From Alphaproteobacteria bacterium (GTDB lineage: Bacteria > Pseudomonadota > Alphaproteobacteria > UBA828): a stretch of 64,000 nt of DNA. Location: the NCBI GenBank assembly GCA_965220745.1, contig CBDCQT010000013.1, positions 608,001 to 672,000 on the forward strand. Direction: 5' to 3'. Position 1 is the first letter of the stretch, and each line of letters begins with the position of its first letter. Under the pieces are notes generated by a model that saw only the letters and a list, made by a program, of their open reading frames with translations, did no database searches and was not told the origin of the DNA. The position numbers and the translations under genes are program-made. Below are positions 22,223-64,000 of this stretch, piece by piece.

Positions 22223-23365
22223 ATGCAGGAACACACAAGACCCGGCGAGTTGATCGAAGAGCTTCTGAATGGCAGAGGTTGGACCAAGCGCAGCTTGGCA
22301 ATCGTTCTCGAAAAGGGCGAGTCGACGGTCAACAAGATCATCTCCGGGAAAAGCACGGTGACCACCGAAGTTGCTTTGGCGCTGGAGGATGTATTCGGCG
22401 TCGATGCGGAGAGATTCCTTGAACTTCAAAGAAAATATGACCTCGCAGTGGCGCGTATTTCCGCAAAACCAGACCGCAGCCGCGCGACGCGCGCGGCGCT
22501 TTTCGGAGACCTGCCAATTTCAGCTATGGTCAAACGCGGATGGCTCGGCACCGCTGACTCAAAGAACCTAACCGAAGTATCGGCAGAACTTGTAAAATTC
22601 TTTGGCGTGTCGTCTTTGGATGAAATTGAAATCCTGCCCCATGCGGCCCGAAAGACCGCTGTTAGCTCGGACCCAACACCTGCCCAACTGGCATGGCTCT
22701 ACCGGGTGAGAGCGATCGCGAGAGAGCAGATTGTCGGAAAGTTCTCGAAACGCGGGCTGGATAAAGCAATCGGCCTCCTTCATACCCTTACCGTAGCCCC
22801 AGAAGAGGCTCGAAAAGTGCCCCGCGTTTTAGCCGAAGCCGGGGTGAGGTTAGTAATTGTTGAGACTCTTCCTGCGGCAAAAATCGACGGTGTTTGCTTC
22901 TGGCTTACGGCCCGCGCTCCCGTAGTTGGGCTTTCGATGCGGCATGATCGCATCGATAATTTTTGGTTTGTGCTGCGACATGAGTTGGAGCACGTTCGCT
23001 TGGGGCACGGGCGCACTGAAATCATGCTGGATACTGAGCTGGAAGGCGAGCGCGCCGGAACTGACTCCGCTATCGCAGAGGAAGAGCGTGCCGCAAATTC
23101 AGCAGCGCAAGATTTCTGTGTCCCTAAACAGGAAATGGACGCCTTCATTGCACGTAAGGCTCCGCTCTTCTCCGAACGAGACCTGCGGGGCTTTGCAAAG
23201 ATCGTCAGAGTGCATCCGGGGATTGTTGCTGGTCAGTTGCAGCATCTGACTGGCCGCTTTGACCGTTTTCGGAATCACCTCGTCAAAGTCCGGTCGCATG
23301 TCGTACCCGGCGCAGCAGTCGATGGGTGGGGTGATGTCTACCCTATCGGCACACAGGAGGACTGA
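22223..23365 (+). CDS. HigA-like XRE HTH fused to an ImmA/IrrE-type zinc metallopeptidase
   Basis: N-terminal HTH (PGELIEELL.GRGWT), KIDGVCFWL, RHDRIDNFWFVLRHELEH (HExxH), EEERAAN. Confidence 0.85.
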   Translation: MQEHTRPGELIEELLNGRGWTKRSLAIVLEKGESTVNKIISGKSTVTTEVALALEDVFGVDAERFLELQRKYDLAVARISAKPDRSRATRAALFGDLPISAMVKRGWLGTADSKNLTEVSAELVKFFGVSSLDEIEILPHAARKTAVSSDPTPAQLAWLYRVRAIAREQIVGKFSKRGLDKAIGLLHTLTVAPEEARKVPRVLAEAGVRLVIVETLPAAKIDGVCFWLTARAPVVGLSMRHDRIDNFWFVLRHELEHVRLGHGRTEIMLDTELEGERAGTDSAIAEEERAANSAAQDFCVPKQEMDAFIARKAPLFSERDLRGFAKIVRVHPGIVAGQLQHLTGRFDRFRNHLVKVRSHVVPGAAVDGWGDVYPIGTQED

Positions 23366-24293: not shown

Positions 24294-25493
24294 ATGGGGC
24301 GTCGGGAACGTGAGCGGGCCTGGGCACAGGCCACACAACTGGTACGGGGCGGGACCGAGCGCTCGCAACACGGCGAAACCAACGAGGCGCTCTACCTGAC
24401 CTCGGGCTTCGTCTACGAGTCCGCCGCACAGGGCAATGCGCGCACGGCGGACGAAGAGGCCGGCTACGTCTACGGCCGATTCGGCAACCCGACCGTCACC
24501 ATGTTCGAGGACCGCCTCGCGCTGATCGAAGGCGCGGATGCCTGCCAGGCGACCGCCACCGGCATGGCGGCAGTCTTCGCGGCTCTGATGAGCCAGCTTC
24601 GTGCGGGCGACCACGTGGTCGCATCCCGCGTCATGTTCGGCGCCTGCTACGTGGTGATCGATCAGCTGTTGCCGCGCTACGGCATCGAGACCGATCTCGT
24701 GGATGGCACCGATCTCGATGCCTGGGAGCGCGTGCTTAGGCCGGAGACCCGCTGCATCTTTCTCGAAAGCCCCGGCAACCCGACCATGCCGGTCGTCGAC
24801 ATCGCTGCGGTCTCGGCACTCGCGCACGGCGTCGGCGCCCGCGTCGTCGTGGACAACGTGCTCGGCATGCCGACCGTGCAGCGCCCCCTCGCCCTCGGCG
24901 CCGACATCGTCGTCTATTCCACGACCAAGCACATCGACGGCCAGGGCCGCTGCCTGGGCGGCGCCATCCTGGGCGACGAAAAGTTCTTCGCAGACGATCT
25001 TGTGCCCTTCATGCGCACCACGGGGCCTGTCATGAGCCCCTTCAACGCCTGGGTCATGCTCAAGGGTCTGGAGACCCTGGAGCTGCGCACGGCCCGCATG
25101 TGCGAGACGGCGGAGCGGCTCGCGGCGTTTCTCGAAGGCCACCCGGCCGTGGCGGCCGTGCACTATCCGGGTCTCGCGAGCCATCCCCAGCACGCGCTCG
25201 CGGCGCGGCAGATGAGCCGGGGCGGTAGCGTAATCGCGTTCGAGCTCGCAGGCGGATGGGACGCCGCCTTCCGCTTTCTCGATACGCTGGAGCTAATCGA
25301 CATCTCCAACAACCTGGGTGACGCCAAGAGCCTCGCCACCCATCCCGCCAGCACCACGCACCAGAAGATCGGCGCGGACGCCCGGGCAACGCTTGGAATT
25401 AGCGACGGCCTCGTGCGCCTCTCGGTCGGGCTGGAGGCGGAGGAAGACCTGCGCGCCGATCTGGAGCAGGCCCTTGCTGCAGCCGGAGGCTAA
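24294..25493 (+). CDS. metZ: O-succinylhomoserine sulfhydrylase
   Basis: RSQHGETNEALYLTSGFVY, YGRFGNPT, YSTTKHIDGQGRCLGG, ISNNLGDAKSL.THPA.TTH. Confidence 0.93.
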   Translation: MGRRERERAWAQATQLVRGGTERSQHGETNEALYLTSGFVYESAAQGNARTADEEAGYVYGRFGNPTVTMFEDRLALIEGADACQATATGMAAVFAALMSQLRAGDHVVASRVMFGACYVVIDQLLPRYGIETDLVDGTDLDAWERVLRPETRCIFLESPGNPTMPVVDIAAVSALAHGVGARVVVDNVLGMPTVQRPLALGADIVVYSTTKHIDGQGRCLGGAILGDEKFFADDLVPFMRTTGPVMSPFNAWVMLKGLETLELRTARMCETAERLAAFLEGHPAVAAVHYPGLASHPQHALAARQMSRGGSVIAFELAGGWDAAFRFLDTLELIDISNNLGDAKSLATHPASTTHQKIGADARATLGISDGLVRLSVGLEAEEDLRADLEQALAAAGG

Positions 25494-47480: not shown

Positions 47481-49074
47481 CAGTCTGTCGGACTTTGGGG
47501 TGGTGTTCGGTTAGAATTCGGCCATGAGCAGATTCGTGGACTGCGGTCGGGACCAAGCTTTCTTGCTTCCGCCCGATCTTCGGGAGTGGATCCCGGAGGA
47601 CGATCTGGCGCACTTCGTGATCGAGGCGGTCGAGCGCGTCGACCTGGGCGCCTTCAAGGTGAACCGCCGCGGCAGCGGCTCGGCGCAGTATCACCCCCGG
47701 ATGATGCTGGCGCTTCTGATCTACTGCTATGCCAACGGGATCTTCTCGAGCCGTCGGATCGAGCGCGCGACCCGTCGCGACATCGGTGTGCGCTTTGTGG
47801 CCGCCAACAGCCATCCCGACCATGACACGATTGCGACCTTCCGGCGCGAGAACCTTGGGGCGGTGGCTGAAAGCTTTCTTCAGGTTCTGCTGTTGGCCAA
47901 GGAGTTGAAGCTGGTGAAGCTGGGGGTGGTCAGCGTCGGCGGCAGCAAGTTCGATGCCAATGCGAGCAAGCATCGCTCGGTCACCTATGACCGGGCGGGG
48001 GCGCTGATCGACCAGTTGCGGCTGGAGATCGCCGATTTGATGGAGCGTGCCGAGGCGGCGGACGCCGACGTCGGCGAGGAGGCGCAGGCGCTGCCCAGGG
48101 AGATTGCGCGCCGTGAGGCTTTGTGCGCGCGCCTGGACGCGGCGCGCCAGCGTCTTGAGGCTCAGGCCAAGGCGCGTGCGGAGGCGGAGCGAGCGGCCTA
48201 CGAGGCCAAGGTAGCAGCGCGCGCCGGGCGCAAGGGCCGGGCCAAGGGCAAGCGGCCGAAGCCGCCCGAGGAGACGCCGCGCGGCGACGAGCAGAGCAAC
48301 CTGAGCGACCCGGACAGCCGGCTGATGCGCAAGAGCAAGAGGCACGAGTACCGCCAAGCCTACAATGCGCAAGCCGTGGTGGATGCCGGGGGCTCTCAGC
48401 TGATCGTGGGCGCGCGGGTCAGCCCCTGCGCCAGCGACCGCAACGAGTTGGTGGCGGACATCGCGGCGATCGCGGCCGAACTGGGCCGGCCCGAGACGGT
48501 GCTGGCGGACAACGGCTATGCCACCGGTGCGGAGGTGGCGGCGCTCGAAGCGGACGGCATCGAGGCTCTGGTGGCGACGGCTGCGGAAGGCCGGCGGCGG
48601 CGCCACGACTTCCGCCCGAGCGGGGCCGGGACGGCGGTGAAGGAAGCCAAGGCCGCCAAGGCCGCGTGGCTCCGGGAGATGGCGAGCAAGCTCGACGGCG
48701 AAGAGGGCCGGGCGCTGTACAGGCTGCGTCAGCAAACCGTCGAGCCGGTGTTCGGCGTCATCAAGGCGGTCCTCGGCTTCACCCGCTTCTCGCTGCGCGG
48801 CCTCGACAAGGTGGCCGGCGAGTGGGACCTGGTGGCGCTGGCCTACAACTGCAAGCGCCTGCACAAGCTCACGTTGTCCATGGCGTCATGACGGCCTTCC
48901 TGGCCCGACTTCTCGATGCGAATGCGTCGACACAGCCCTGCAGTACCGGACATCGACGTTTCAGCGATCGCCCCAACCCCATCCCCGCCGTCTCATCCAA
49001 CCTCGATCGTGCCGCCGGCAAACCAAAGCCAAACCACTCATAATCGAAAGCCGACCCCAAAGTCCGACAGACTG
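47481..49074 (+). mobile_element. IS1182-family insertion sequence
   Basis: Perfect 20-bp IRs CAGTCTGTCGGACTTTGGGG (47481-47500) and CCCCAAAGTCCGACAGACTG (49055-49074); CTAG duplicated on both sides. Confidence 0.93.
47524..48891 (+). CDS. IS1182-family transposase (first catalytic Asp replaced by Gly)
   Basis: LLPPDLREWIPEDDLA, YHPRMML, PDHDTIATFR, VSVGGSKF (normally .DG.K), LADNGY, VEPVFG.IK. Confidence 0.9.
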   Translation: MSRFVDCGRDQAFLLPPDLREWIPEDDLAHFVIEAVERVDLGAFKVNRRGSGSAQYHPRMMLALLIYCYANGIFSSRRIERATRRDIGVRFVAANSHPDHDTIATFRRENLGAVAESFLQVLLLAKELKLVKLGVVSVGGSKFDANASKHRSVTYDRAGALIDQLRLEIADLMERAEAADADVGEEAQALPREIARREALCARLDAARQRLEAQAKARAEAERAAYEAKVAARAGRKGRAKGKRPKPPEETPRGDEQSNLSDPDSRLMRKSKRHEYRQAYNAQAVVDAGGSQLIVGARVSPCASDRNELVADIAAIAAELGRPETVLADNGYATGAEVAALEADGIEALVATAAEGRRRRHDFRPSGAGTAVKEAKAAKAAWLREMASKLDGEEGRALYRLRQQTVEPVFGVIKAVLGFTRFSLRGLDKVAGEWDLVALAYNCKRLHKLTLSMAS

Positions 49075-49343
49075 CTAGGTCCTGACACTGATCGACAGGG
49101 GTCTCGGCCCGTCCTCGACCAACTCCACGCTCTTTGCCTTCTGGTGGTTCCTGTACGTCGAATTGACCGCGAAAAACGCGCTGTTCGCTGTCCACGACGA
49201 GGGCGCTCGCTTCTGGGGCCGTGTCGGCTCGCTCATCGAGACGTGCAAGATGAACGGCGACGATGGGGTGGACGCCCCCTCCCGACGGCATCGAATCGTG
49301 CCAAGGTGGTGGTGCGTTGAACCACCTGAGGAAGGAGGCATCC

Positions 49344-50366
49344 ATGGACGAGGTTACCATCATCGGAATCGACTTGGCGAAGAACAGCTTTCAGTTGCAT
49401 GGTGCCCGGGCAGACGGGTCCGTTGCGTTCCGCAAGAAGCTGAGCCGAGGAAAGGTGCTCGACTTCCTCGCCAGGCAATCATGCTGTGTCGTAGCGATGG
49501 AGGCCTGCGCGAGCGCTCACTATTGGGGTCGTGAGGCGCAGGCGCTTGGACACGAGGTCAAGCTGGTCCCGCCGATCTACGTGAAGCCATTCGTGAAGCG
49601 CCAGAAGAACGATACGGCTGACGCGGAGGCGACCACCGAGGCAGCCCAGCGCCCGACCATGAGCTTCGTGGCCGTGAAGACGGAAGAACAGCAGGCCAGG
49701 GGGATGCTGTTCCGCACGCGTGATCTCCTGGTGCGCCAGCGCACGCAGACGATCAATGCTCTGCGAGGTCACTTGGCGGAGTTCGGCGTCATTGCTCCGC
49801 AGGGGCCAGCTCACGTCGGTCGCTTGGAAGCGGCACTCATGGATTCACACTCAGGGCTACCGGAACTGGTTCGCGAACTGGGTGTCCTTCTGCTGGAGCA
49901 GATCGCCGGCCTCGATGAGAAGATCGTCCGATTAGAGAGCGAGCTGCGGGCCAACGCGCGCCGGGACGAAGAAGCGTCGCGACTGATGACGATACCGGGT
50001 GTTGGGCCGATCACCGCGATGGCGGTTCAGGCATTCGCGCCTCCGATGGAGAGCTTCCGGTGCGGGCGCGACTTCTCAGCCTGGATCGGCCTGGTTCCGA
50101 GGCAGCACACAACCGGCGGCAAGCCGCGGCTGGGCAAGATATCCAAGATGGGTCAGCGCGATCTCAGACGGCTCTTGATCGTCGGTGCCATGGCCGAGAT
50201 CTCTTGGGCAGTGCGCCGCGGTACGACGAAGGATCCATGGTTGGCCTGCATGTTGGAACGCAAACCACGCAAGGTAGTCGCCGTTGCGCTGGCCAACCGG
50301 ATGGCCCGCATTATCTGGGCGCTGAACACGAAGAAGGAGATCTACCGGGCTCCCGCCGCCGCCTGA
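49344..50366 (+). CDS. IS110-family DEDD recombinase/transposase
   Basis: IGIDLAKNSFQ, AMEAC, KNDTADAEA, TIPGVGPITA, WIGLVPRQHTTGGK, VALANRMARI.WA. Confidence 0.95.
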   Translation: MDEVTIIGIDLAKNSFQLHGARADGSVAFRKKLSRGKVLDFLARQSCCVVAMEACASAHYWGREAQALGHEVKLVPPIYVKPFVKRQKNDTADAEATTEAAQRPTMSFVAVKTEEQQARGMLFRTRDLLVRQRTQTINALRGHLAEFGVIAPQGPAHVGRLEAALMDSHSGLPELVRELGVLLLEQIAGLDEKIVRLESELRANARRDEEASRLMTIPGVGPITAMAVQAFAPPMESFRCGRDFSAWIGLVPRQHTTGGKPRLGKISKMGQRDLRRLLIVGAMAEISWAVRRGTTKDPWLACMLERKPRKVVAVALANRMARIIWALNTKKEIYRAPAAA

Positions 50367-54282: not shown

Positions 54283-55808
54283 GCGTGCTGACCGTCGGCG
54301 GGCGGCGCTTTGCGGCCGGGCTCTACTGGCTGGAGCGCAAGGGTGCGGCCTCTGTGGCTCGGAACGCGCGGGCCTTCAAGCGTCCCTGGCACGTTCACTG
54401 GGGCGAGCAGACCGGGTACGCGGCGGACGAGGAGAGCCCGAAGGACTGTCCGAGCCTGGCGGCGTCGCTGCAGGCGCGCATCGCGGCCCCCACCTGGATG
54501 GCGCTGGTGGAGGTGGACGACGGGCGCCTTGCGCTGGTGAAGGCCAGGGACGGCGCCTTCCTTGCCGACGGCGACGAGGTGTTTGCCGACCGGGAGGCCG
54601 CGCTTGCGGCCTTCGAGCGTGCCCGCGGCAAGACGGAAAGTTCCACCGTACCCGTGAGTTCCACGGTACCGGAGAGTTCCTCCGTGGGCTGGGCGCTCCA
54701 TGCGACGCCGGGGCTGGTGAAGGACGCGGGAGCGGAGCGTTCCCCCGTAAGCGAGATCGACCCCGCGTCGCTGGCGGACGATCCCGGCATGCGCCTTGCG
54801 GCGGCGCCGCTCTCGACGCTCGGCCTGCCGAAGGTGGGGCGCTTCCTGGCGCTTGCCGTCATGGTGGCGGGCGGCGCCTTCGTGTGGACGCAGCGCGGCA
54901 CGATCTGGGACTTGATCGCCGGACCCGAGGAGGCGGCGGAGGCGGAGCAGGCGCCCGTGGAGCCGCCGGTGACGGCGATACTGGATGCGGGCGCGCTGCT
55001 CGCGGGCTGCCGGCAGGCGCTCATGGCGTATCCGCCGTACCTGCCGGCATGGCGCACGGAGCGCATCTCCTGCGAGGGCCGCTTCGCAGACATCGCGCTC
55101 ATCGGCGTGCGCCCGGAGCTCGAGGACCGGGCGGTGCTCACGGTGCGCTGGCGGCTCGGTTCGGGTCGTCCGGAGCCCCTGCACCGGCGCATCGCCGAGA
55201 CGCACCTCTCCGGATGGTACGCGGCTTCGGTCACGGGGGACCGGGCCTGGGCGGTTGCGCCGCTCGCCCCGGTGCTGCAGCGTTTCGAGGTCGGAGGGGA
55301 ACACCATGGTGCCCCTCCCTCCCTGCTCGACTTCCGCGAGGCGGTGGACCGGCATTTCGGCGCGCGCGGCACCCGCATCGAATACCCCATGCAGGGCGAC
55401 GGCATCGAGTTGCGCGTCACGACCGGTCGCGTGCCCTTTCGCCTCGCAGACGCCATTGCCGCCGTGCCCGGTCTCGAACTCGTGCGGCTCATCCGGGACA
55501 GCGCCGGCGAGTGGCGGCTCGAAGGGCGGCGGGTGTCGCCGGTCTCCATGCCGCGCGAACGCTTCGAGCAGGCGATTCGGCCACTGACTCAGTCAGTGTC
55601 TCAGTCAGTGACTCAGTCACCGGCGCATTCGGTGGCGCAGCCAGTAGCGCAGCCACCGGCAAAGCTGGAAGGCGCGGCCACTGACCTGACCGGCGATGCA
55701 GTCGGCGAAGTCACCGACCCAATCGATGCCGCGGCCACCGGCACGACTGGCAATGCAGCCGGCAGCGCGATCAACCACACGGCCAACGACGGAGGCTCTG
55801 GATCATGA
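54279..55808 (+). CDS. Type IVb pilus accessory protein PilO-like
   Basis: N-terminal F.AGL.W, SLAA.L motif, single central TM; position right after pilN. Confidence 0.65.
   Translation: MSVLTVGGRRFAAGLYWLERKGAASVARNARAFKRPWHVHWGEQTGYAADEESPKDCPSLAASLQARIAAPTWMALVEVDDGRLALVKARDGAFLADGDEVFADREAALAAFERARGKTESSTVPVSSTVPESSSVGWALHATPGLVKDAGAERSPVSEIDPASLADDPGMRLAAAPLSTLGLPKVGRFLALAVMVAGGAFVWTQRGTIWDLIAGPEEAAEAEQAPVEPPVTAILDAGALLAGCRQALMAYPPYLPAWRTERISCEGRFADIALIGVRPELEDRAVLTVRWRLGSGRPEPLHRRIAETHLSGWYAASVTGDRAWAVAPLAPVLQRFEVGGEHHGAPPSLLDFREAVDRHFGARGTRIEYPMQGDGIELRVTTGRVPFRLADAIAAVPGLELVRLIRDSAGEWRLEGRRVSPVSMPRERFEQAIRPLTQSVSQSVTQSPAHSVAQPVAQPPAKLEGAATDLTGDAVGEVTDPIDAAATGTTGNAAGSAINHTANDGGSGS
55587..55658 (+). 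repeat. 12-bp tandem repeat (TQSV/AQPV) in the pilO-like tail
   Basis: actcagtcagtg tctcagtcagtg actcagtcaccg gcgcattcggtg gcgcagccagta gcgcagccaccg. Confidence 0.75.
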
Positions 55809-57583
55809 GCAAGGGAGCACGCTGCAATCGGCGACATCTGCGTAGACGCATCATGGCGGGTGCGAGCGCGCTCGCGATCAGCGTCGCCATCCACGCAGCG
55901 GCGATAGCGGTGATCACGCCGATGTTGGCGACACCGGCGGCCGCGCAGGAGAGCGAGGAGGTCTACCGCCAGGAGGCGCTGGCCCATGCAAGGGCCATCT
56001 CCGAGGGCTGGCGGCGCCTCGAGGACCACATTCTGCGGCGCTCGACTGCGCCCACGCGCTGGACAGGCTCCGTGCCGCCGGCGTCGACCGGATGGCTGGA
56101 TGCCTGGAACGAGCGGGGAGTAGGGGCGCGCTACTGCGATAACACCCTGCTGGTCTACATGGAGCCCGAGGTCCTCAAGGGCGTGGGTCGCGACCAGCGC
56201 TCGGTGCAGGTGGCGCCCCACCTCTATGCCGCACAGGGGAACACCCTGGTCCAGGGGAACACCCTGGCAGGCGGCCTCGCCGCCCTGCACTGGCTCACGG
56301 GTGCCTCAGGCACATGGGTAGCCGAGGGAACCGCGGGCCGGCCTGATGTGTCCTTGCCGGCATGCCTCTCCGATTCGTCCTTCGGCGGTCCCCTGCCCTT
56401 CGGGCGTGTGGCGCTGGCGGGCGCAGTGCGCGACCCGCACCTCGATCTGCGCGAGCGGATCTCGCACGAGCGCAGCGTGGAGGACTGCCCCGCAGGAACG
56501 CATGGCGAAGGCCGCACCATGACCCGTGAGGTACGGCAGACATACGACGGCAGGGGCGATGCGGTGGGCGATCCCGTCATGGGCTCCTGGCAGGTGTCGA
56601 TCGACGACTGCCGGGCCGACTACAGCGAGTGGGAGCACTACACGCTGGAGTGCAGCTGGCTTGCGGGCCCGCCGCACGACCGGGAGATGACGGGTCAGGA
56701 GATCTGGCGCCGGGAGAAGACGGTAACTGCCGATGGCGTGTCGTGGGGTACGCCGGAGTTCGTCTCGACGAGTTGCTGGGAGGGGCAGGTGCCGGCGCTC
56801 CCGCAGGCCGAGGTGACCGAGACGGTGCGCACCGAGACCACGAGCGGGGCCTGTCCTGCGGGCTACTCGGGCACGGCGGTGCTGACGCGGACGGTGACGA
56901 CGCGGTCCACGACGTGGCCCTGGGACGCCCAGCCCACGGTCCAGGACATCCCCGGCAACTGGATTGCCGACGAGTCGGGGTGCACCCAAGTGGTTCTGCC
57001 TCCCATCCACACGGACGAGTTCACGCCGGGGGGCCCGACGGGTACGGGCACCGGGGGGCCTGGAGACGGCAGTTGCGGGCCAGCACCCGGAGATGGCGGC
57101 GGCTCGGACGGCCCCGGCGACGGCACCTGCTCGGGGCCGGGCGTGGGTCCGGGCGCGGGCAACGGCGGCGGAAACGGCGGCTGCTTCCTCACCGAGGCGG
57201 TGGTGGGCGCGCAGGGCATCGAGGCCGACGACGGCCCGACGCTGACGACGCTGCGCGCCTTCCGCGACCGCTACATGCAAGAGACGCCGGAGCGCCGGGC
57301 GCTGGTGGCCCGCTACTACGAGATCGCACCTCGCATCGTTGCTGCGATCCGGCTGGGGCACGAGGACTGGAACTGGATCGGCACGCAGGTGGACGAGGCG
57401 GTGGCGGCGATCCGCGCCGGTGAGAACGACCATGCCTTCGCCATCTACGTCGCCATGGTGCGCCGCCTGGAGGCGCGCTGGCTCGAGCCGGCGCGGGAGG
57501 CGCCGCAGCAGAGGGTTTCTATGCACCAGGGTGTTCCCCTGCACCAGGGTGTTCCCCTAGACCGGGGTGTTCCCCTGTCATGA
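55805..57583 (+). CDS. Exported Cys-rich protein with a Gly-rich linker and a CFI-box-CTERM-like C-terminal domain
   Basis: Signal/TM N-terminus; CPAG...TR...W repeats; GGCFLTEAV...LTTLRAFRDRYM...LVARYYEIAP.IV. Confidence 0.72.
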   Translation: MSKGARCNRRHLRRRIMAGASALAISVAIHAAAIAVITPMLATPAAAQESEEVYRQEALAHARAISEGWRRLEDHILRRSTAPTRWTGSVPPASTGWLDAWNERGVGARYCDNTLLVYMEPEVLKGVGRDQRSVQVAPHLYAAQGNTLVQGNTLAGGLAALHWLTGASGTWVAEGTAGRPDVSLPACLSDSSFGGPLPFGRVALAGAVRDPHLDLRERISHERSVEDCPAGTHGEGRTMTREVRQTYDGRGDAVGDPVMGSWQVSIDDCRADYSEWEHYTLECSWLAGPPHDREMTGQEIWRREKTVTADGVSWGTPEFVSTSCWEGQVPALPQAEVTETVRTETTSGACPAGYSGTAVLTRTVTTRSTTWPWDAQPTVQDIPGNWIADESGCTQVVLPPIHTDEFTPGGPTGTGTGGPGDGSCGPAPGDGGGSDGPGDGTCSGPGVGPGAGNGGGNGGCFLTEAVVGAQGIEADDGPTLTTLRAFRDRYMQETPERRALVARYYEIAPRIVAAIRLGHEDWNWIGTQVDEAVAAIRAGENDHAFAIYVAMVRRLEARWLEPAREAPQQRVSMHQGVPLHQGVPLDRGVPLS

Positions 57584-58797
57584 GGGCGCGTCGCACCATG
57601 ATGGGCCTGGCTGCGGCCGCGCTCATGGCGGCGTGCGCGGGAGAGGCAAGTGCACAGTCAGGACCTCCCAACTACAGCTCCCATGATGCGGCGTTCTTCT
57701 CGGAGCTGCTGACCGACCGGGTCTGGCTGCTCGAGCGCCCGAACTCGGCGCAGGCGGGCGACCGGGGTCTGGTCTGGGGCATCCACCATGCGGCCGACGG
57801 CACCGCGCGGGCGTGCATCCACCTCGACGGCGTCTGGCAGGCGCGAATCGACCGCTGGCGGGTGGTCTCGTCGCCCCGCTTCCGGGCCCTCTACAACTAC
57901 CACGACGCCGGCACGGAACCCGATCCCGGCCACGTGAAGGGGCACGTGCCGATCTTCTACGACCCCGGGACGGGCCGGCTCCACAGCGAGAGCGTCGGCG
58001 GAGCCGAAGGCTCGCAGGGCAACTGGTTCGTGCTCTCTCTCGGCTGGGTGCAGGAGAGCTGGCCGCAGGCGCTGAAGGACACTTGTCCCGACCTCGATCT
58101 TCCCGCCGGGTTTTCGGTCAATGCGAAACAGACCTCCGTGCTCATGGAGGAGGCCGTCGCGCAGGATCCCGATGCGGCGCTCCGCACTCATCCGGGCTCG
58201 GAGCTGAGGGCGCCGGGCTCGATTGGGCTGGCGATGACAGGCGGCGGGCCAACGGTGACGGCGGCAGACCTCGCGCGTTTCCTTGCGGCCAACGACGGGC
58301 ACGTGCTCAAGAGCCCGGCGGGAACGCGAATGGTGCTGGTGCTTGGGGCAGAGCGCGACGAGCTGTGGCGGCTGGATGAGCACGGGAACGTAACCGACAC
58401 GGCGGTGCTGCTGCCTTCGGCCGAGGGTGCCGGCATCGCGGCGCAGTGGGAGCGCCTTCCACGCCGTCTGGAGTACCGCCTGGGCGACCCCTTCCCGCTG
58501 CAGCCGACCGGCGAGCGTTATGGGGCGATGGCGCTCACGGACCGCCTGGTCGCCGCGGGCCGGCCCGTCGCGCTGCCGTTCGGAGACATGGGCGACATCC
58601 CGCTGCGCTTCTACGACGGCGGCGCGGCGACGGCGGAAGACGTCCACGGCGGCGAGCTAGGCGGCCGCTGGCGCTGGTCGCGGGGCCATCTCCACGTCTC
58701 GCTCGACGGCATGGCGGAGACGCTGGCCTGGCCCTTGCGCGATCTTGCGCGGCACGTCGGCACGATCCCGGCCTCTTCCGACGGCTCGGCGGAGTGA
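57580..58797 (+). CDS. Hypothetical exported protein in the pilus operon
   Basis: ATGA overlap; signal peptide with a possible lipobox MAAC. Confidence 0.65.
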   Translation: MRARRTMMGLAAAALMAACAGEASAQSGPPNYSSHDAAFFSELLTDRVWLLERPNSAQAGDRGLVWGIHHAADGTARACIHLDGVWQARIDRWRVVSSPRFRALYNYHDAGTEPDPGHVKGHVPIFYDPGTGRLHSESVGGAEGSQGNWFVLSLGWVQESWPQALKDTCPDLDLPAGFSVNAKQTSVLMEEAVAQDPDAALRTHPGSELRAPGSIGLAMTGGGPTVTAADLARFLAANDGHVLKSPAGTRMVLVLGAERDELWRLDEHGNVTDTAVLLPSAEGAGIAAQWERLPRRLEYRLGDPFPLQPTGERYGAMALTDRLVAAGRPVALPFGDMGDIPLRFYDGGAATAEDVHGGELGGRWRWSRGHLHVSLDGMAETLAWPLRDLARHVGTIPASSDGSAE

Positions 58798-58804
58798 ACG
58801 GACG

Positions 58805-59911
58805 ATGAGCGTGCGCCCCCTCCGTTTCGTCTTGCCCGCGGCCATGCTCGCGTCCACCACTCTCTGGGCGAGCACCGCCGCTGCGGGAGGATTGCCGCCC
58901 CTGCCGATAGAGATCGGGGAGATCGCAGAATCGGTCGCCGCGGTCTCGGGGGCGGTCGAAACAGACGCACGGACTGCCGGTGACAATGCCCTTCGGCATG
59001 CGACGCAGCCGTCGGCATCCGGGCCGGCAGAGGAGGCCGCCGGGACCGCCGATGTTCCTGAAGCGGCCAATGCCGCACCCGATGCAGTTGCGAAAGCGCC
59101 GCCGGCGAGCCGTCTGCTTCGCTCCCTGGAGGCGTGGTCTGCGCAGCCGACGATGGCCTCGCCATCGCCCGACGGGGCTTCCGCTGATGTCGGCCGGTCG
59201 GCAGCGGAAGCAGCGATCGGCAGATCACCGGGGAGTTCCCCTGGCCCGGCGCGTTCCGCTGTACCAGGGAGTTCCCCTGTGCCGGGGAGTTCCCCCGTTT
59301 TGCACGGTTGTCCGCGCGCGCTGCTGGCAGCGCTTCTGGGGGAGGCAACCGAGACAGCGGATGCGGTCTCTGCGCTCGCGATCGAGCGGGAGACGCTGGC
59401 GCTCTGCCGTGAGCGCCAGGAGATCGTCAACGGCATCGTGGCGCTGGAGGGCGAGCTGCAGGCGCTGCTGGCCGAAGCGCAGAACACGACGGGAGCGCCT
59501 GATGCAGGTGCCGGCGCAATCGGGCCTGCGGACGCGCCTATAGTTAAGGTGTCGGCGCCGGTCCGCGTGATCGAGGTGCCGGCGCCTGCGCCCCTGCGCG
59601 CGGAGACGGCAGAGGGGGCGACGGCCGCCCCGGCGCCCGCGCCGGAACTCCCCTCATACAGCTGGTTCTCGATCGTCGGCACGGCCGGCGACCTGCGCGC
59701 CGGCGTCAGCGACGGCACCGGGCACGGTGGCACGAATGTCTGGTTCGTGCGCGAGGGCGACCGGCTGCCCGGCGGGGTGACGGTGGCGCGCATCGTCGCC
59801 CGACCTCCGGGCGTGCACGTGGAGGGCGCCGTGGAGGCCGCCCTTCCCTACAGGCCCCGTCCTTCTGGCGTTACCGGCCCGCGCCGGGATGGCAAGGGAG
59901 ACGGATCGTGA
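58805..59911 (+). CDS. PilP-like type IVb pilus protein
   Basis: Signal peptide, coiled coil, Pro-rich linker, C-terminal SIVG..G.L.A...VREGD.LPGG.TV..I beta domain. Confidence 0.6.
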   Translation: MSVRPLRFVLPAAMLASTTLWASTAAAGGLPPLPIEIGEIAESVAAVSGAVETDARTAGDNALRHATQPSASGPAEEAAGTADVPEAANAAPDAVAKAPPASRLLRSLEAWSAQPTMASPSPDGASADVGRSAAEAAIGRSPGSSPGPARSAVPGSSPVPGSSPVLHGCPRALLAALLGEATETADAVSALAIERETLALCRERQEIVNGIVALEGELQALLAEAQNTTGAPDAGAGAIGPADAPIVKVSAPVRVIEVPAPAPLRAETAEGATAAPAPAPELPSYSWFSIVGTAGDLRAGVSDGTGHGGTNVWFVREGDRLPGGVTVARIVARPPGVHVEGAVEAALPYRPRPSGVTGPRRDGKGDGS

Positions 59912-61563
59912 AGCGTACCAGGGCGTTCCCCTGTTCCGCCGCAGAGTGGCTGGGCCTGCAGGGGAACGCCCTGATTCCCGCACGGCGTCGGGGTTCCGAG
60001 GGCTCCGGCGGCCTCATCCGCCACCCCGCCATGGACGAGTGGGTCAGGCGCGTCTGCGCCGTGTACGCTGACGGCCGCTGCCTGATCGCCGAAGGCTATG
60101 AGAGCGACCGCAGGCTGCGCGCGGCTCTCATAGAGCTCCGCCGCAACGGCAGTGTCCCCGGCCGACTGATCGAGCGCACCGCCGACCTCGACGAGATCGC
60201 GGCGTGCTGGCGCAGGGCAGCGCATGAGGCGGCGGGCGGCGAGGCGCCTGCAGCGCACAAGGTGCGCACCCTCTTCGAAGAGGCCGCCGCGGCCAAGGCC
60301 AGTGACGTCGTCTTCGAGAACGACGGCGGGCTCTGCCGCGTCCACGGCATCGTCAACGACCGCAAGCTCCAGCTCGCAGCCCCCATGCCAGCAGACGAGG
60401 GCCGCGAGGTCATGGGCTTCCTCTTCCACTGCAAGGACGAGGGATCGGCACAGACCTCGTACCAGAGAAGCGCCTTCCAGGGCTTCTCGGTCCGAGCCGG
60501 CGGCCAGGTGCCGCTGCCCTCGACGGTCTCCGCGCTGCGCTGCCAGCGCGGCCCCCACGAGCCCGACGGCGATCATCTGTTCGCCCGCCTCTTCTACCGT
60601 GACCGTATCGCCAAGGGCACCACTCTGGAGAGCCTCGGCTTCTCTGCAGAGGAGGCGGCGGTGTTCTCGGAGATCCGCATGTCGCTCCGGGGCGGCATCT
60701 TCCTCGGCGGCACGGCGGGGGACGGCAAGTCCACCACGCTGGCTACCAATCTCGCGCTCCAGATGGAGGAGGCGCAGGGCCAGCTCAACGTGGTGACCAT
60801 CGAGGACCCGGTGGAATACCCCATTCCGGGCGCGGTGCAGATCGCGGTGCCCACCACGGGCTCCGGCGAGGAGCGCGGCAGGCACTTCAGGGACGCGCTG
60901 ATGCACTTCTGCAGGGTGCATCCGGCGTCGGGAATGGTGTCCGAGATCAGGGACGCGGACGCGGCCCGGCAGGTGCTGCAGTTCATCGACACCGGCCACC
61001 AGGTGTGGACCACCATCCACGTCCACTCCGCCAACGCGATCCTTTTCCGCCTGCTCGACATGGGGGTGGGCACCGCCGAGGTGTGCAAGCCCGGCAACAT
61101 CGAGCTGCTGATGAAGCAGACCCTGCTTCCCAGGCTCTGCGACGCATGCGCGCTCGAAGAGCCTGCGGGAGGCAAGGCGGTCCCCGACTGGCTGGGGCGG
61201 CATCTCCGCAACTGGCCCGGAGTGCGCTTCCGCAACCCGCAGGGCTGCGAGACCTGCAATCGCGAAGACCGAAGTGTCGTGGCGGGCAAGGCCTGGAACG
61301 GCTACGCGCAGCAGACGGCAATTGCCGAGACCATCCGCCCCGATGCGGCCTACCTCGCCTTCGTGCGCCAGCGCGACCCGGCAGGCGCCTGGGAGCACTG
61401 GGTGACCCATATGGGCGGCAGGCCCATGGGCGAGCGCATCTGGGCGCTGGTGGCGGCCGGCCGTGCGGACCCCTTCGATGCGCTGCGCAAGGGCGCACGG
61501 GTGAACCAGGCGGAGGCCGTGGATGCCTCGCCGCTTCCGGCCTCCGGGGAAGACGCCGCATGA
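59908..61563 (+). CDS. Type IV pilus assembly ATPase (PilQ/BfpD, GspE-like)
   Basis: Walker A GGTAGDGKST, Asp box TIEDPVEY, SEIRD, His box TGHQVWTTIH, tetra-Cys LCDAC...GCETC. Confidence 0.9.
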   Translation: MKRTRAFPCSAAEWLGLQGNALIPARRRGSEGSGGLIRHPAMDEWVRRVCAVYADGRCLIAEGYESDRRLRAALIELRRNGSVPGRLIERTADLDEIAACWRRAAHEAAGGEAPAAHKVRTLFEEAAAAKASDVVFENDGGLCRVHGIVNDRKLQLAAPMPADEGREVMGFLFHCKDEGSAQTSYQRSAFQGFSVRAGGQVPLPSTVSALRCQRGPHEPDGDHLFARLFYRDRIAKGTTLESLGFSAEEAAVFSEIRMSLRGGIFLGGTAGDGKSTTLATNLALQMEEAQGQLNVVTIEDPVEYPIPGAVQIAVPTTGSGEERGRHFRDALMHFCRVHPASGMVSEIRDADAARQVLQFIDTGHQVWTTIHVHSANAILFRLLDMGVGTAEVCKPGNIELLMKQTLLPRLCDACALEEPAGGKAVPDWLGRHLRNWPGVRFRNPQGCETCNREDRSVVAGKAWNGYAQQTAIAETIRPDAAYLAFVRQRDPAGAWEHWVTHMGGRPMGERIWALVAAGRADPFDALRKGARVNQAEAVDASPLPASGEDAA

Positions 61564-62609
61564 GCCAGTTCGCACAGAAACTCGCGGGCACGTTCCTGCT
61601 CGGGCGCAAGGCCCGTGTGGACGTCTTCCGCATGGTGGCCGATCTGCTGGACGCGGGGTTCTCGCTGGAGCGCGCGCTGGAGATCGCCGCACGGGCGGCG
61701 AAGGACCAGGGTCAGCACGGCAGGGCGCAGCTCCTCGGGGCCTGGCGCAAGGCGCTGCTGGAGGACCGCTTCGCGGATGCCGTTGCAGGAAGCCTGCCGG
61801 CTTCCGAGGCGATGATCTTCCACGCCTATGGGCGCGTCGATGCGGCGATGCTGTTCGCCGCCGCCGCACGCGTCGCGGAGATGCGCGAGCGCCAGATCGC
61901 GGCGGTGTGGAAGGCGCTGGCCATGCCCCTGGTGCTGGCTCTGGGCCTGGTGCTGATGCTCTGGGCCGCCGGCGGCCACTTCATCCCCGTCATCGAGAGC
62001 GTGAGCCCGCCCGAGCAGTGGGGCTCCGGCGCGCGTCTCTTCCGCAGCGTCTCTGTCTGGCTCAACGCCAACACCCTGGCGTTCGGCGCCACGCTCCTGG
62101 GTCTCGTCGCGGCCGTCACGGCCGCGATGGTGGCCTGGACCGGGCCCGGCCGCACCGTTCTCGACAGGATCGCACCGTTCTCGCTCTACCGCACGCTCAC
62201 CGGCTCCGCCTTCCTGTTCGTGACCATGGAGTTCCTGGCGGCGGGCATCGACGTCAACGACCGCACCTTCGAGGCGCTGAAGCGCGCCGCCTCCCCCTAC
62301 GCCCGTCACCGCATCGCGGCGATCCAGGGGCACATGGCGCGGGGCGTGGGCCTCGGGCGCAGCATGGTCATGGCGGGACACGGCTTCCCGGACCCCTCCC
62401 TGGTTCCCGTGGTTGCGGCGCTGGACGGGGCGCCGGGATGGGAGAGGAAGCTCGCGCGCTTCGTGGAGCGCTGGGTGGGGCGCTCGGACGAGCTGCTGCG
62501 CGCTCGCGCTGCGCTTCTCAACGGCACGCTTCTCATTGTGGCGGCACTGGTCATGGGCTCGGGCATCGACGCGATGTTCTCGATCCTGGAACAGGCCGCC
62601 CGGTACTGA
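61560..62609 (+). CDS. Inner-membrane platform protein (PilR/BfpE, GspF-like)
   Basis: Three TM segments, LDRIAPFSLYR...GSAFL, AGHGFPD. Confidence 0.82.
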   Translation: MSQFAQKLAGTFLLGRKARVDVFRMVADLLDAGFSLERALEIAARAAKDQGQHGRAQLLGAWRKALLEDRFADAVAGSLPASEAMIFHAYGRVDAAMLFAAAARVAEMRERQIAAVWKALAMPLVLALGLVLMLWAAGGHFIPVIESVSPPEQWGSGARLFRSVSVWLNANTLAFGATLLGLVAAVTAAMVAWTGPGRTVLDRIAPFSLYRTLTGSAFLFVTMEFLAAGIDVNDRTFEALKRAASPYARHRIAAIQGHMARGVGLGRSMVMAGHGFPDPSLVPVVAALDGAPGWERKLARFVERWVGRSDELLRARAALLNGTLLIVAALVMGSGIDAMFSILEQAARY

Positions 62610-62623
62610 CGGAGGAAAAGGAC

Positions 62624-63271
62624 ATGGAAGGCTTCATCGGCGACGGCAACCGGGCCCTCGACAATCCTGGCCTGAGGCAAGGGGGCGGCGCGGCGCCCGC
62701 TGCGGGGCGCCTGCGGCGCCTGCGCCAGAAACGCTGGCGCCGGGGCTTCAGCCTCTTCGGGGTGCTGCTGGGGCTGACCCTCGCTGCGGTGGCCATCGTG
62801 GGGGCCGTCAGCCTCTACAACGCCGCCCGCGAGTCCGCCAACCGCTCCGAGGCGCTGACCCTGCTCAACCGGCTGCGCGCCAACGTGGAGAGCGTCTTCG
62901 CAGGCGCCCCCTCCTACGGCAACAACACGAACCTGATCGCCACCATCGACCGCAGGGGTGGCATCCCCGACAGCGCACGCACGGTGCGGGGCAACAGGGT
63001 CCAGATCCGCCACCCCTTCGGCGGCCTGGTGAGCGTGACCGGCGGCCCCGGCGGGGCCACCAACCAGTTTCTGATCGTCTTCAACGACGTGGACGACGAG
63101 GTTTGCGCGGCGCTGGGCGACGCCTATGCCGGCCGCACCCGCGCCAGGGCGGGAATCGTGTCGATCACGGTGAACGGCACCACCCTGGCCTCGCCGGTGA
63201 CGGTGGCGCAGGTGACGGCCAACTGCGACGACGGCGCCGGCGCCAACGATATCGGGTTCACCTTCGGATGA
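62624..63271 (+). CDS. Type IVb major prepilin (PilS-like)
   Basis: 41-aa basic leader ending RRG|FSL, hydrophobic helix, HPFGG.V.V, C-terminal Cys pair (VCAAL...ANC). Confidence 0.82.
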   Translation: MEGFIGDGNRALDNPGLRQGGGAAPAAGRLRRLRQKRWRRGFSLFGVLLGLTLAAVAIVGAVSLYNAARESANRSEALTLLNRLRANVESVFAGAPSYGNNTNLIATIDRRGGIPDSARTVRGNRVQIRHPFGGLVSVTGGPGGATNQFLIVFNDVDDEVCAALGDAYAGRTRARAGIVSITVNGTTLASPVTVAQVTANCDDGAGANDIGFTFG

Positions 63272-63312
63272 CTAGGCGAAGCCTGGACATGCGAGGCGCG
63301 GATAGGCGCAGC

Positions 63313-64000
63313 ATGACCATGCGTGGCGTGAGCCCGGGCGGCAAGAAGCCGCTTCGCCGGTACCGTGTGGGCGCAGGCGCGCTTGTAGCGGTGCTGCTTC
63401 TGGCGGCGCTGGCGGGCACCGGGCTTGCGGTCCATTACGCGGCGCAGCATGCGGCGCGGCAGGTGGCGTCGTCCTTCGACGCGGGCCGGGTGTTCGGCGA
63501 ATGGGTGCTGGCGGCGCACCGGGCGAGCCAGGAGCACGACTTCTCGCCGCGCCTCGAGACCGAGCCCGCCTTCGTGCTGACGCCGGCCGCGCTTCGGACC
63601 CTGGGTGCGGCGCCGCCGGGGCTGCCCACACATGCAGGCCGTCTCGCCTCCTTCATGGTCGGCATCATGGAGGACGGCCGCGGAGGACCAGGGAGTTTGC
63701 CTGGACCGGGGCGTTCCCCTGTGGCGATGGCTTTCGGTGTGCTGGAGCCGGCGCGTCCGGAGGCGGCCCCGGCCTTGCGGAGCGGCGCCATCGCCGCCGG
63801 TCTCGCCGCGCTTGCGGAGGCCGGCAGCGCAGAGACGTCGATGGCGGCTCACGTACCTGCCATCGAGGCCGCGCTGGGGCGGCCGCTTGCAGCGGACGGA
63901 CTCTACGTCACGGCGGACGCAGGGTTGCACTACAAGGACGCGGTTCTCTACCGGCGCCCGCAGCCCGGGCGGCCGGGGTTGAACCGCATGGAGACGGCCC
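63313..64000 (+). CDS. PilV-like tip adhesin, N-terminal constant region (runs off the window)
   Basis: Open frame from the ATG at 63313 to the window end; hydrophobic N-helix; LYRRPQPGRPGLNRMET resembles the PilV LYR...G.P.LN.M.T motif. Confidence 0.65.
   Translation, partial: MTMRGVSPGGKKPLRRYRVGAGALVAVLLLAALAGTGLAVHYAAQHAARQVASSFDAGRVFGEWVLAAHRASQEHDFSPRLETEPAFVLTPAALRTLGAAPPGLPTHAGRLASFMVGIMEDGRGGPGSLPGPGRSPVAMAFGVLEPARPEAAPALRSGAIAAGLAALAEAGSAETSMAAHVPAIEAALGRPLAADGLYVTADAGLHYKDAVLYRRPQPGRPGLNRMETA

Follow-up and report, generated by a model that had tools for sequence, protein, structure and literature searches.

Introduction

How does one and the same short, nearly palindromic piece of DNA come to be translated again and again, in different reading frames and in both orientations, within the genes of a conjugation machinery? 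The question is raised by a stretch of 64,000 nucleotides from an alphaproteobacterial genome (C13:608001-672000 of the 4.82-Mb genome in 13 contigs that we refer to as G000; this whole stretch is called the window), in which an earlier note, made from the letters of the DNA, had described an 18-bp motif scattered through genes of a pilus region, either as binding sites for an element-encoded protein or as a tiny selfish in-frame repeat. Judged by its gene content, the host region is a type IVB (IncI/Dot-Icm-like) integrative conjugative element (ICE). We favor, with some reserve, the answer that the 18-bp unit represents a family of coding hairpin mini-repeats that is selfish or at best neutral, inhabits only the backbone transfer genes of this ICE family, and undergoes birth and death of its copies.

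Results

An 18-bp unit inside the transfer genes

The unit has the consensus N-ACC-RGGG-N-GTTC-CCC-TG, with a stem of 5-6 bp and a loop of 5 nt in its 18 bp. Its core CAGGG-N5-CCCTG occurs six times exactly in the window, where shuffled sequences predict 0.10, and ACCRGGGNGTTCCCCTG, with up to three mismatches permitted, is found 16 times against 1.59 expected, the largest number in any shuffle being 6. The motif that had been noted is therefore real, and chance at this GC content does not account for it. All 16 matches to ACCRGGGNGTTCCCCTG lie within window 54668-63721, and the search of the first 54 kb found none, in agreement with the earlier note, in which the motif had not been noticed there. 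Arrays with a period of 18 were reported by Tandem Repeats Finder at window 54639-54685, 57522-57577, 59227-59295, and 63685-63721. What had been underestimated is the extent: the field of copies was thought to end at 63721, but it continues up to C13:736806, which is 64.8 kb beyond the right end of the window.

A genome-wide profile scan had been proposed as a check on whether the motif is equally frequent elsewhere in the genome, and it is not. With at most one mismatch, 29 of the 32 genome-wide matches lie within C13:664234-736806, and a profile built from the copies places 42 of its 48 matches of at least 10 bits in C13:663-737 kb and only six in the remaining 4.75 Mb. The sole perfect copy outside the C13 region is found at C3:233411, in the open reading frame (ORF) of a third TrwC-type relaxase. 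This gene (L006:7719-10841; C3:232719-235841) is located close to a contig end, and its unit, read as APGRSPV, takes the same relative place as in the relaxase of a second element that is described below.

All of the 47 copies that were mapped at 8.5 bits or more are inside ORFs of transfer, mobilization, or primase genes; none of these 47 is intergenic or in a promoter region, and the 29.5 kb at C13:704313-733845, which hold cargo and further genes, are free of copies of at least 8.5 bits. A seven-unit array that was at first called intergenic turned out to be the C-terminal tail of the DotD-like lipoprotein. The units are distributed across at least 15 genes, often in direct tandem, with arrays of 2-9 units, and the carriers include the cytoplasmic enzymes, namely the relaxase, the coupling protein, and the primase.

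The assignment of the region as a type IVB ICE is based on the Pfam families T4SS_TraI, DotI, DotH, T2SSE, PilS, Shufflon_N, TrwB, TrwC, and Phage_integrase, and on an NCBIfam match to DotA/TraY (210 bits, cut-off 100), together with DotD, TraO, TraQ, and PilN matches below the respective cut-offs. The secretion set comprises DotD-like, DotC/TraI-like, DotB/TraJ-like, DotI, DotH, TraO/DotG-like, TraQ-like, and DotA/TraY proteins, and the thin-pilus set a PilN-like secretin, a PilQ-like ATPase, PilR-like and PilS-like proteins, and two PilV-like proteins. Further element proteins are an SSB, a TrwB-type coupling protein, a TrwC relaxase, a YAcAr protein, a Toprim primase, and a second SSB, and regulation and mobility are represented by an integrase, two insertion sequence (IS) transposases, an S24 cI-like repressor, and an HTH_17 protein. 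A family scan saw no additional recombinase gene among the transfer genes.

Related elements with and without the unit

The 14-mer RGGGNGTTCCCCTG is clustered in 16 of 20 genomes of the genus, a backwards control matched almost nothing, and the 28 other genomes of the order contained one single match. Within the genus, 12 of the 20 genomes encode homologues of the TraI-like protein, often more than one each; 23 genomes from elsewhere in the family encode none, and a scan of genome contigs with the single protein found only four loci. For comparison, we used 14 elements, that is, the G000 element and 48-kb stretches (32 kb for G004) around 13 of the 23 other TraI-like places, all brought into the same orientation, with copies per stretch counted at 10 bits or more and the identity of the TraI-like protein given relative to G000. 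The counts are 39 copies for G000 (100%), 32 for G020a (80%), 36 for G005a (78%), 20 for G008a (78%), 19 for G011a (75%), 21 for G005b (74%), 26 for G005c (72%), 8 for G011b (67%), 6 for G003a (61%), 0 for G016 (61%), 2 for G020b (58%), 2 for G011c (57%), 2 for G004 (55%), and 3 for G003b (53%). The elements are collinear in their gene order. As a sister element, G016 shares the backbone, its proteins being 47-86% identical to those of the G000 element, and contains no copy of the 18-bp family (family A) or of the two further families B and C that are introduced below; the whole complete genome lacks any match to the 14-mer. As this absence is complete despite the shared backbone, the units must be dispensable. 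On G016:C1 (3.6-Mb genome), there are five TrwC-type relaxase genes at 1.94-2.25 Mb, whose relaxase domain is 70-75% identical to that of G000.

Close relatives also occur in contigs from sponge, coral, and marine metagenome runs. An exact dimer of the unit was present at 23 loci of the metagenome contigs. At 21 of them, homologues of the transfer genes are encoded, and such homologues contain or neighbor 108 of the 117 units at the dimer loci. The other two loci share a 1197-aa ORF without a Pfam domain (L070:3874-7464, also L059 and L063), which carries a two-unit array, lies beside a TrwC relaxase gene in L070, and is the only non-backbone gene in which we saw units. In the type IV secretion region of a Roseomonas mucosa plasmid, which is GC-rich and of type IVB, with a 34.5% identical DotC, no dispersed repeat family was found.

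Whole units are gained and lost, and remaining copies decay

An alignment with orthologous genes, which had likewise been proposed, was carried out by comparing the lengths of orthologous loci for which both 90-bp flanks could be placed (134 loci, 477 locus-by-element pairs). Only 70 pairs were of equal length; among the 407 unequal pairs, the difference was a multiple of 18 in 326, another multiple of three in 64, and neither in 17. The copies thus behave as length changes of 18n bp, and what the orthologues show is the presence or absence of the DNA unit, not a conservation of the peptides. Private, clean 18-bp insertions were seen in G008a at 24447 and 26201, each empty in the 13 other elements, and an insertion in G020b at 22878 is empty in four elements. 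Grouped by coordinate and orientation, the 14 elements have 74 insertion sites, and 47 of these are private to one element. At the clean insertions, there was no target duplication beyond a preference for G before and T after the unit, with G as the preceding base in 68 and T as the following base in 52 of 88 single units.

Array lengths at one site range from zero to 8-9 units across the elements, and in metagenome alleles, net changes of -36 and +36 bp were seen at the arrays of window 56231-56269 and 54639-54674. The site in the PilV-like gene illustrates the range of states among relatives, as it is empty (G016, G003a, and G011c), decayed, inverted and decayed, perfect, or doubled. Joints between arrays in metagenome contigs, for example from 57575 to 59259, were considered as recombination events and are read as artifacts of assembly, in which contigs jumped from one repeat to another.

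Individual copies are not conserved, and shared copies decay faster than the flanking coding DNA. In the 70 equal-length pairs, the identity was 0.79 in the unit and 0.85 in the 60-bp flanks, and for the 59 pairs with flanks less than 95% identical, the values were 0.75 and 0.82; the unit identity is a lower bound, since some partners may hold unrelated sequence of equal length. Because single copies decay faster than the codons around them, the repeat family must persist by turnover.

The stem tolerates G-T pairs on one strand

A collection of 229 copies permitted the analysis of covariation in the stem. At pair 4-16, A-T was found in 123, G-C in 43, G-T in 48, and A-C in 7 copies, and at pair 5-15 there were eight A-T double changes. 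The excess of G-T over A-C is also seen when the copies are combined into 58 coordinate groups (24 groups with G-T, 7 with A-C; binomial p 0.003) or when distinct 18-mers are counted (26 versus 6). Divided by element strand, the numbers were 30 versus 4 and 18 versus 3, which is the same asymmetry in both orientations, and the insertion sites themselves show no orientation bias (40 versus 34). A G-T mismatch is tolerated in a folded single strand and its complement A-C is not, which points to a single-stranded hairpin intermediate; as the asymmetry is the same for either orientation of the copies, the pairing can be tied neither to the mRNA nor to one transferred strand. From these base changes, we infer that pairing probably matters on the strand with the GTTC loop, at a copying step that would pass through such an intermediate.

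Fold prediction gives a 5-bp stem and a 5-nt loop for each unit, and the seven-unit array is predicted to fold with -37.9 kcal/mol on the unit strand (z -3.7) versus -32.5 kcal/mol on the other strand. The loop bases G9 (226 of 229) and T11 (228 of 229, regardless of the reading phase) are as invariant as the stem core, an invariance that is partly due to ascertainment, as the copies were collected with a profile.

Six reading phases at tolerant places of the proteins

In the hand-checked copies of G000, all six reading phases are used, three sense and three antisense. The sense phases 0, 1, and 2 give (H/D/Y)(Q/R)G(V/D)PL, GPGRSPV, and RTRAFPC, and the antisense phases 0, 1, and 2 give QGN(T/A)L, GEH(H/P)G, and GGTPR(S/N). 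The frame independence that had been proposed is correct as far as conservation at the DNA level and the frame-keeping length of 18 nt are concerned, and all peptides named at that time could be located (HQGVPL/DRGVPL, SPGSSP/VPGSSP, RTRAFPC, QGNALI, QGNTLV/QGNTLA, and GGEHHG); there are, however, six phases and not the five readings that had been listed. The unit length is divisible by three and no stop codon occurs in any of the six frames, which explains why the unit can be tolerated in protein tails, linkers, and loops. The units indeed sit at such places, namely at N- and C-terminal tails, in linkers, and, in the case of the relaxase, in a loop on the surface of the fold. When the relaxase is aligned with the solved structure of R388 TrwC (1OMH), two units (GGTPRSGGTPRS) account for exactly the 12 residues that TrwC lacks directly after the His-rich HTHAVI.NM motif. 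The C-terminal tails of the CFI-box protein and of the DotD-like lipoprotein are built of units. A rare GTT codon and the invariant T are kept in whatever phase.

Further unit families

Other short dyad-symmetric units with a length of 3n occur in related elements, with several families in one element. Family B has 15 bp with the core CACTCGTGCCGG; its single units and arrays, which point in either direction, amount to 36 matches in the 48 kb of G003a and to 17 in G011c (G003:C2:1287278-1335277 and G011:C1:3442175-3490174; L035-L037 and L041-L043). Its length differences are multiples of 15 in 40 of 66 non-zero cases, and its insertions show 4-7 nt homology between the flank and the unit end. 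Family C has 18 bp, consisting of CACCCCTTCGGGTG and four further bases, i.e., CACCCCT(T/G/C)CGGGTG + 4, with a 5-bp stem and a 4-nt loop; in G000, it is found beyond the window at L001:6806-6862 and L001:13438-13494 (C13:676806 and 683438), with copies that include the C-terminus of the TraI/DotC-like protein, and it also occurs in seven related elements. Its length differences are multiples of 18 in 78 of 112 non-zero cases. Family C seems to use mostly one frame with TPSGGG-like peptides, as judged by a frame-assignment script that we consider unreliable: automatic assignment mis-frames copies in C-terminal tails, so that the phase tallies for families B and C are rough.

Neither the 226-aa protein nor the TrwB-type coupling protein is encoded in the elements rich in family B, whose relaxase shares only 28-30% identity with that of the G000 element; the change from unit family A to B thus coincides with a change of the mobilization module. 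Near-perfect A units are nevertheless present in a few places in B-type elements, including genome G003, in which the TraI-like query found no A-type element and the closest relaxases are 49-50% identical. Site-bound 15-mers and 12-mers also exist. The ORF at the pilO position also contains a 12-bp palindromic tandem repeat, TGACTCAGTCAG, at window 55585-55619, whose 2.9 copies are translated as LTQSVSQSVTQS; G020a and G005b have related copies, and a metagenome allele omits 36 bp nearby (55617-55654). At window 63261, in the 3' end of the PilS-like pilin gene (gene end 63271), a contig from a sponge metagenome has a 15-bp insertion whose unit CTTCGGATGAGTCCG represents a small hairpin, and short arrays of this 15-mer are found at the corresponding place in G016 and G011b.

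Copies and host genes in the window

The copies of the window and their host genes are compiled in Table 1. The decayed units at the beginning of the field translate as ESSTVPVSSTVPESSSV...AERSPV. From the antisense pair in the CFI-box protein gene, metagenome alleles (runs X20 and X6) miss exactly 36 bp, and the three-unit array of this gene constitutes the last 18 codons ahead of the final Ser codon and the stop codon. In the PilQ-like ATPase gene, the sense unit is a clean 18-bp insertion relative to element G011a, and the inverted unit faces an 18-bp gap in elements G005a, G005c, G008a, and G011b. The ORF at the pilO position is named by gene order, since no Pfam or NCBIfam family matched.

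Table 1. Copies of the 18-bp unit and the genes that carry them (positions in the window; the strand of a copy is that of the unit)
Feature	Position	Strand	Gene or basis of assignment
ORF at pilO position, 509 aa	54279..55808	+	no Pfam/NCBIfam family matched
Decayed units, array of ~2.6 units and two copies with three mismatches (54668-54684, 54731-54747)	array 54639-54685, span 54639..54747	+	ORF at pilO position
Single unit, antisense phase 1, GGEHHGA	55294..55311	-	ORF at pilO position
ORF with CFI-box-CTERM domain	55805..57583	+	43 bits, cut-off 40
Two tandem units, antisense phase 0, QGNTLV QGNTLA	56234..56269	-	CFI-box protein gene
Three tandem units, sense phase 0, HQGVPL HQGVPL DRGVPL	57524..57577	+	CFI-box protein gene
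ORF at pilP position, open frame, true start uncertain	58745..59911	+	no family matched
Four tandem units, second decayed, SPGSSP GPARSA VPGSSP VPGSSP	59226..59297	+	ORF at pilP position
PilQ-like type IV pilus / T2SSE ATPase gene	59908..61563	+	Pfam/NCBIfam
Single unit, sense phase 2, RTRAFPC, codons 3-9	59916..59933	+	PilQ-like ATPase gene
Single inverted unit, antisense phase 0, QGNALI, N-terminal tail	59959..59976	-	PilQ-like ATPase gene
PilV-like gene	63313..64000, past window edge, end C13:672470	+	weak Shufflon_N match
Two tandem units, first decaying, sense phase 1, GPGSLP GPGRSPV	63686..63721	+	PilV-like gene

Surroundings of the element

The two IS transposase genes of the element (DDE_Tnp_1 type, IS110 family) are encoded at window 47563-50363, between the integrase and the cI-like repressor. 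With regard to the idea that the unit might be a pseudo-attachment site, derived from the core site of the integrase, no tRNA gene was found near the presumed ends of the element, and the left junction and C13:698-762 kb have no direct repeat of more than 13 bp in common. At L001:17178-18257, there is a gene for a 360-aa SSB in which only the first ~100 residues form the SSB domain, and its tail is poorly conserved, with ~32% of the length alignable in most elements.

A second integrative element directly follows the first one at ~C13:706000-738100 (L003, L004). It has two adjacent integrase genes, PhdYefM/PIN, an SSB, a Toprim primase, a YAcAr protein, and a cargo of PPK2, TetR, a GMC oxidoreductase, and an ABC transporter. 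The module of 226-aa protein, coupling protein, and TrwC relaxase is present in inverted orientation with 71-76% DNA identity, the primase module is also an inverted copy, and the units of the second element are found only in its 226-aa protein/coupling protein/TrwC module. Beyond this element, a 1359-aa Eco57I-type restriction-modification methylase-like gene is encoded (L004:15366-19442; C13:739366-743445).

Discussion

How the units may spread

Our data indicate that the 18-bp unit is rather probably a selfish or, at best, neutral guest of the transfer genes. With regard to the two readings that had been offered at the outset, the selfish in-frame repeat has gained from the 18n-bp insertions, the decay of shared copies, the absence from G016, and the existence of other families, whereas the binding-site reading has been weakened by the lack of intergenic copies, the private sites, and a G-T versus A-C asymmetry that is unlike a symmetric duplex site. 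As to the mechanism, arrays would expand and contract by hairpin-promoted replication slippage, which is supported by the 18n polymorphism. New sites could be reached by copy-choice, that is, template switching with one to few bases of junction homology, and this step would take place while the element DNA is single-stranded during conjugative or rolling-circle replication, or while it is paired with a co-resident related element. Such a copy-choice would need no dedicated enzyme and could accommodate several unrelated unit families, and slippage and copy-choice that operate on element DNA would spare the chromosome and recently acquired cargo genes.

Several observations weigh against this account and should be considered together. 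The hairpins predicted for single units have little stability, and in some predictions the opposite strand folds more stably than the unit strand. The invariant loop hints at a sequence-specific factor, as passive slippage does not obviously require such a loop. Only 1 nt of junction homology is seen at several private insertions, and there is no intergenic copy although insertions should be tolerated best there, a deficit that is not significant with ~25 independent loci. The A units inside B-type elements suggest an action in trans, which is awkward for a purely cis-acting copy-choice. Furthermore, copies share descent, and covariation and indel counts therefore overstate the number of independent events. 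Finally, a bulk function that needs many hairpins anywhere would be compatible with turnover.

Some of these points speak for an active single-strand transposition, in which an element-encoded or host enzyme with specificity for the hairpin or its loop would cut or copy the GTTC-loop hairpin into single-stranded DNA, in a manner that would resemble REP/RAYT (REP, repetitive extragenic palindrome) or IS200/IS605 chemistry. The intrinsic, orientation-independent strand asymmetry, the nearly invariant loop, the exact 18-bp insertions without target duplication, the preferred G|T junction, and the perfect A units inside B-type elements all fit to this idea. We nevertheless regard it as doubtful, since the genome contains no Y1/RAYT transposase, several unrelated families in one element would demand several specificities, and the chromosome is spared. 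As a copying agent, RAYT was rejected because PF01797 was not found in this 99.96%-complete genome, by a search whose control matched six of 14 known genomes. The TrwC relaxase would be a candidate HUH enzyme, but relaxases and units do not go together: the five A-type relaxases of G016 are accompanied by no unit, and G003 carries units in the absence of an A-type relaxase. An oriT-like resemblance was also discarded, as the inverted repeats near both relaxase operons are unlike the unit. In its most pointed form, the idea describes the unit as a new kind of mobile DNA, a minimal coding hairpin transposon of 15-18 bp, copied in a loop-specific, single-stranded manner by a factor that acts only on conjugative single-stranded DNA, a speculation to which we give the same low credence. 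If it were true, units would jump between co-resident elements and never into the chromosome, and pilus, secretion, and relaxase proteins would have their tails and loops continually remodeled, with co-option being possible, for example as priming sites.

It is improbable, in our view, that the hairpins are maintained for a function in the single-stranded state, such as priming or protein loading for complementary-strand synthesis, or handling by the coupling protein or the SSBs. The elements bring along a Toprim primase and SSBs of their own and have the copies only in conjugation genes, the covariation tolerates G-T, and the density of about one copy per kb would suit such a role. However, only one strand is transferred in conjugation, and yet the sites are distributed 40 versus 34 by orientation; the sister element does without any unit, the copies decay faster than their flanks, and elements that agree in their gene set carry anything between 0 and 39 copies per 48 kb.

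Even less credit can be given to duplex binding sites, operator- or centromere-like, for an element-encoded dimeric protein acting as silencer, partition factor, or roadblock. The 6-5-6 dyad symmetry, the iteron-like tandem arrays, the specificity of the motif for the element lineage with another motif in the other lineage, and the presence of cI-like and HTH_17 regulators initially speak for such sites, but not one of the 47 copies is in intergenic or promoter DNA, positions are not conserved and shared sites decay, G016 manages without units despite the shared backbone and gene set, and one and the same element harbors two or more different families. Moreover, binding by a symmetric dimer predicts equal numbers of G-T and A-C, and 48 versus 7 were seen.

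A selection of the units as Gly/Pro-rich, flexible protein spacers of variable length, whose DNA likeness would merely reflect recent duplication, is very improbable and largely refuted by the fact that the six phases of one DNA give unrelated peptides: all six readings are Gly/Pro/Ser-rich, the copies are in tails and loops, and family C seems to use one frame (by the script judged unreliable), but the GTT codon and the invariant T are phase-independent, cytoplasmic enzymes carry units as well, and stem covariation is a property of nucleic acids.

Relation to known repeats

To our knowledge, Rickettsia and scattered intragenic REPs account for most of the in-frame selfish palindromes described so far. 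In the pilV gene of IncI plasmids, shufflon crossover sites flank invertible segments and are used by a dedicated recombinase. Like these, the 18-bp units are short in-frame sites in both orientations in IncI-type thin-pilus genes, but shufflon sites are confined to pilV, whereas the units are found in at least 15 genes, often in direct tandem. KorB/ParB-type sites and iterons are positionally conserved and mostly intergenic, and their cognate protein is encoded nearby. The palindromic unit, the many copies on one replicon, and the occasional arrays resemble such operator or centromere sets, from which the 18-bp units differ in that their positions are not conserved (47 of 74 sites private) and none is intergenic. 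As to single-strand transposition of the IS200/IS605 type (PATE-like), the units show no target duplication, a preferred G|T junction, and an intrinsic strand asymmetry, but there is only one hairpin per 18-bp unit and no Y1 enzyme in the genome.

A study of GTAG- and CGTC-tagged palindromic repeats (Di Nocera, De Gregorio, Rocco 2013; PMC3733652) describes some units that lie wholly inside ORFs and are translated, often near protein termini, and argues that these intragenic REPs are free of functional constraint. REPs and the 18-bp unit alike are short G+C-rich stem-loops with frequent G-T stem pairs, but the GTAG/CGTC tag described in that study is absent from the unit, whose 229 copies are bordered by ACC on the 5' and by CTG on the 3' side. 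REPs are mainly extragenic and genome-wide, whereas the 18-bp family is never intergenic (0 of 47) and inhabits one element family; REPs form inverted dimers, whereas the unit has a fixed length and forms head-to-tail arrays of up to nine, and the G000 genome has no RAYT. Rickettsia palindromic elements (RPEs) are also selfish palindromes that are inserted in frame in many unrelated genes with tolerated peptides; as summarized in a review (PMC10969869), they are ~150 bp long, reside in chromosomal metabolic genes of an intracellular bacterium, and have a peptide conserved in one frame, in contrast to the six phases, the tandem amplification, and the restriction to a conjugative element in our case. 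Palindromic amphipathic repeat coding elements (PARCELs; PMC2996958, 2010) share with the units the intragenic tandem repetition, dyad-symmetric DNA, variable copy number, and association with mobile elements; as described in that paper, they are 25-residue amphipathic protein domains, found by a protein hidden Markov model, in dedicated repeat proteins, whereas the 18-bp units have no conserved peptide and are guests inside enzymes and structural proteins. The unit family is thus distinct from REPs, RPEs, and PARCELs, being six codons long, read in six phases, tandem, wholly intragenic, limited to one family of conjugative elements, and accompanied by sister families. A literature search, with subscription journals and supplements outside its reach, found no description of element-confined in-frame hairpin repeats.

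What the units mean for the elements

For practical work with these elements, the units are both an obstacle and a possible tool: they disrupt short-read assemblies, as contigs jump between arrays, and they could serve as markers, comparable to variable-number tandem repeats, for tracking the elements in sponge and marine metagenomes. They also demonstrate how well type IV secretion, pilus, and relaxase proteins tolerate insertions. With six codons, the family represents the smallest form of an in-frame selfish palindrome, it is restricted to mobile elements, and it offers many datable gain and loss events in 14 elements. It therefore provides a natural system for the question of how very short hairpins reach new sites without a known transposase, and it could reveal whether conjugation, in its single-stranded phase, causes mutations of this kind.

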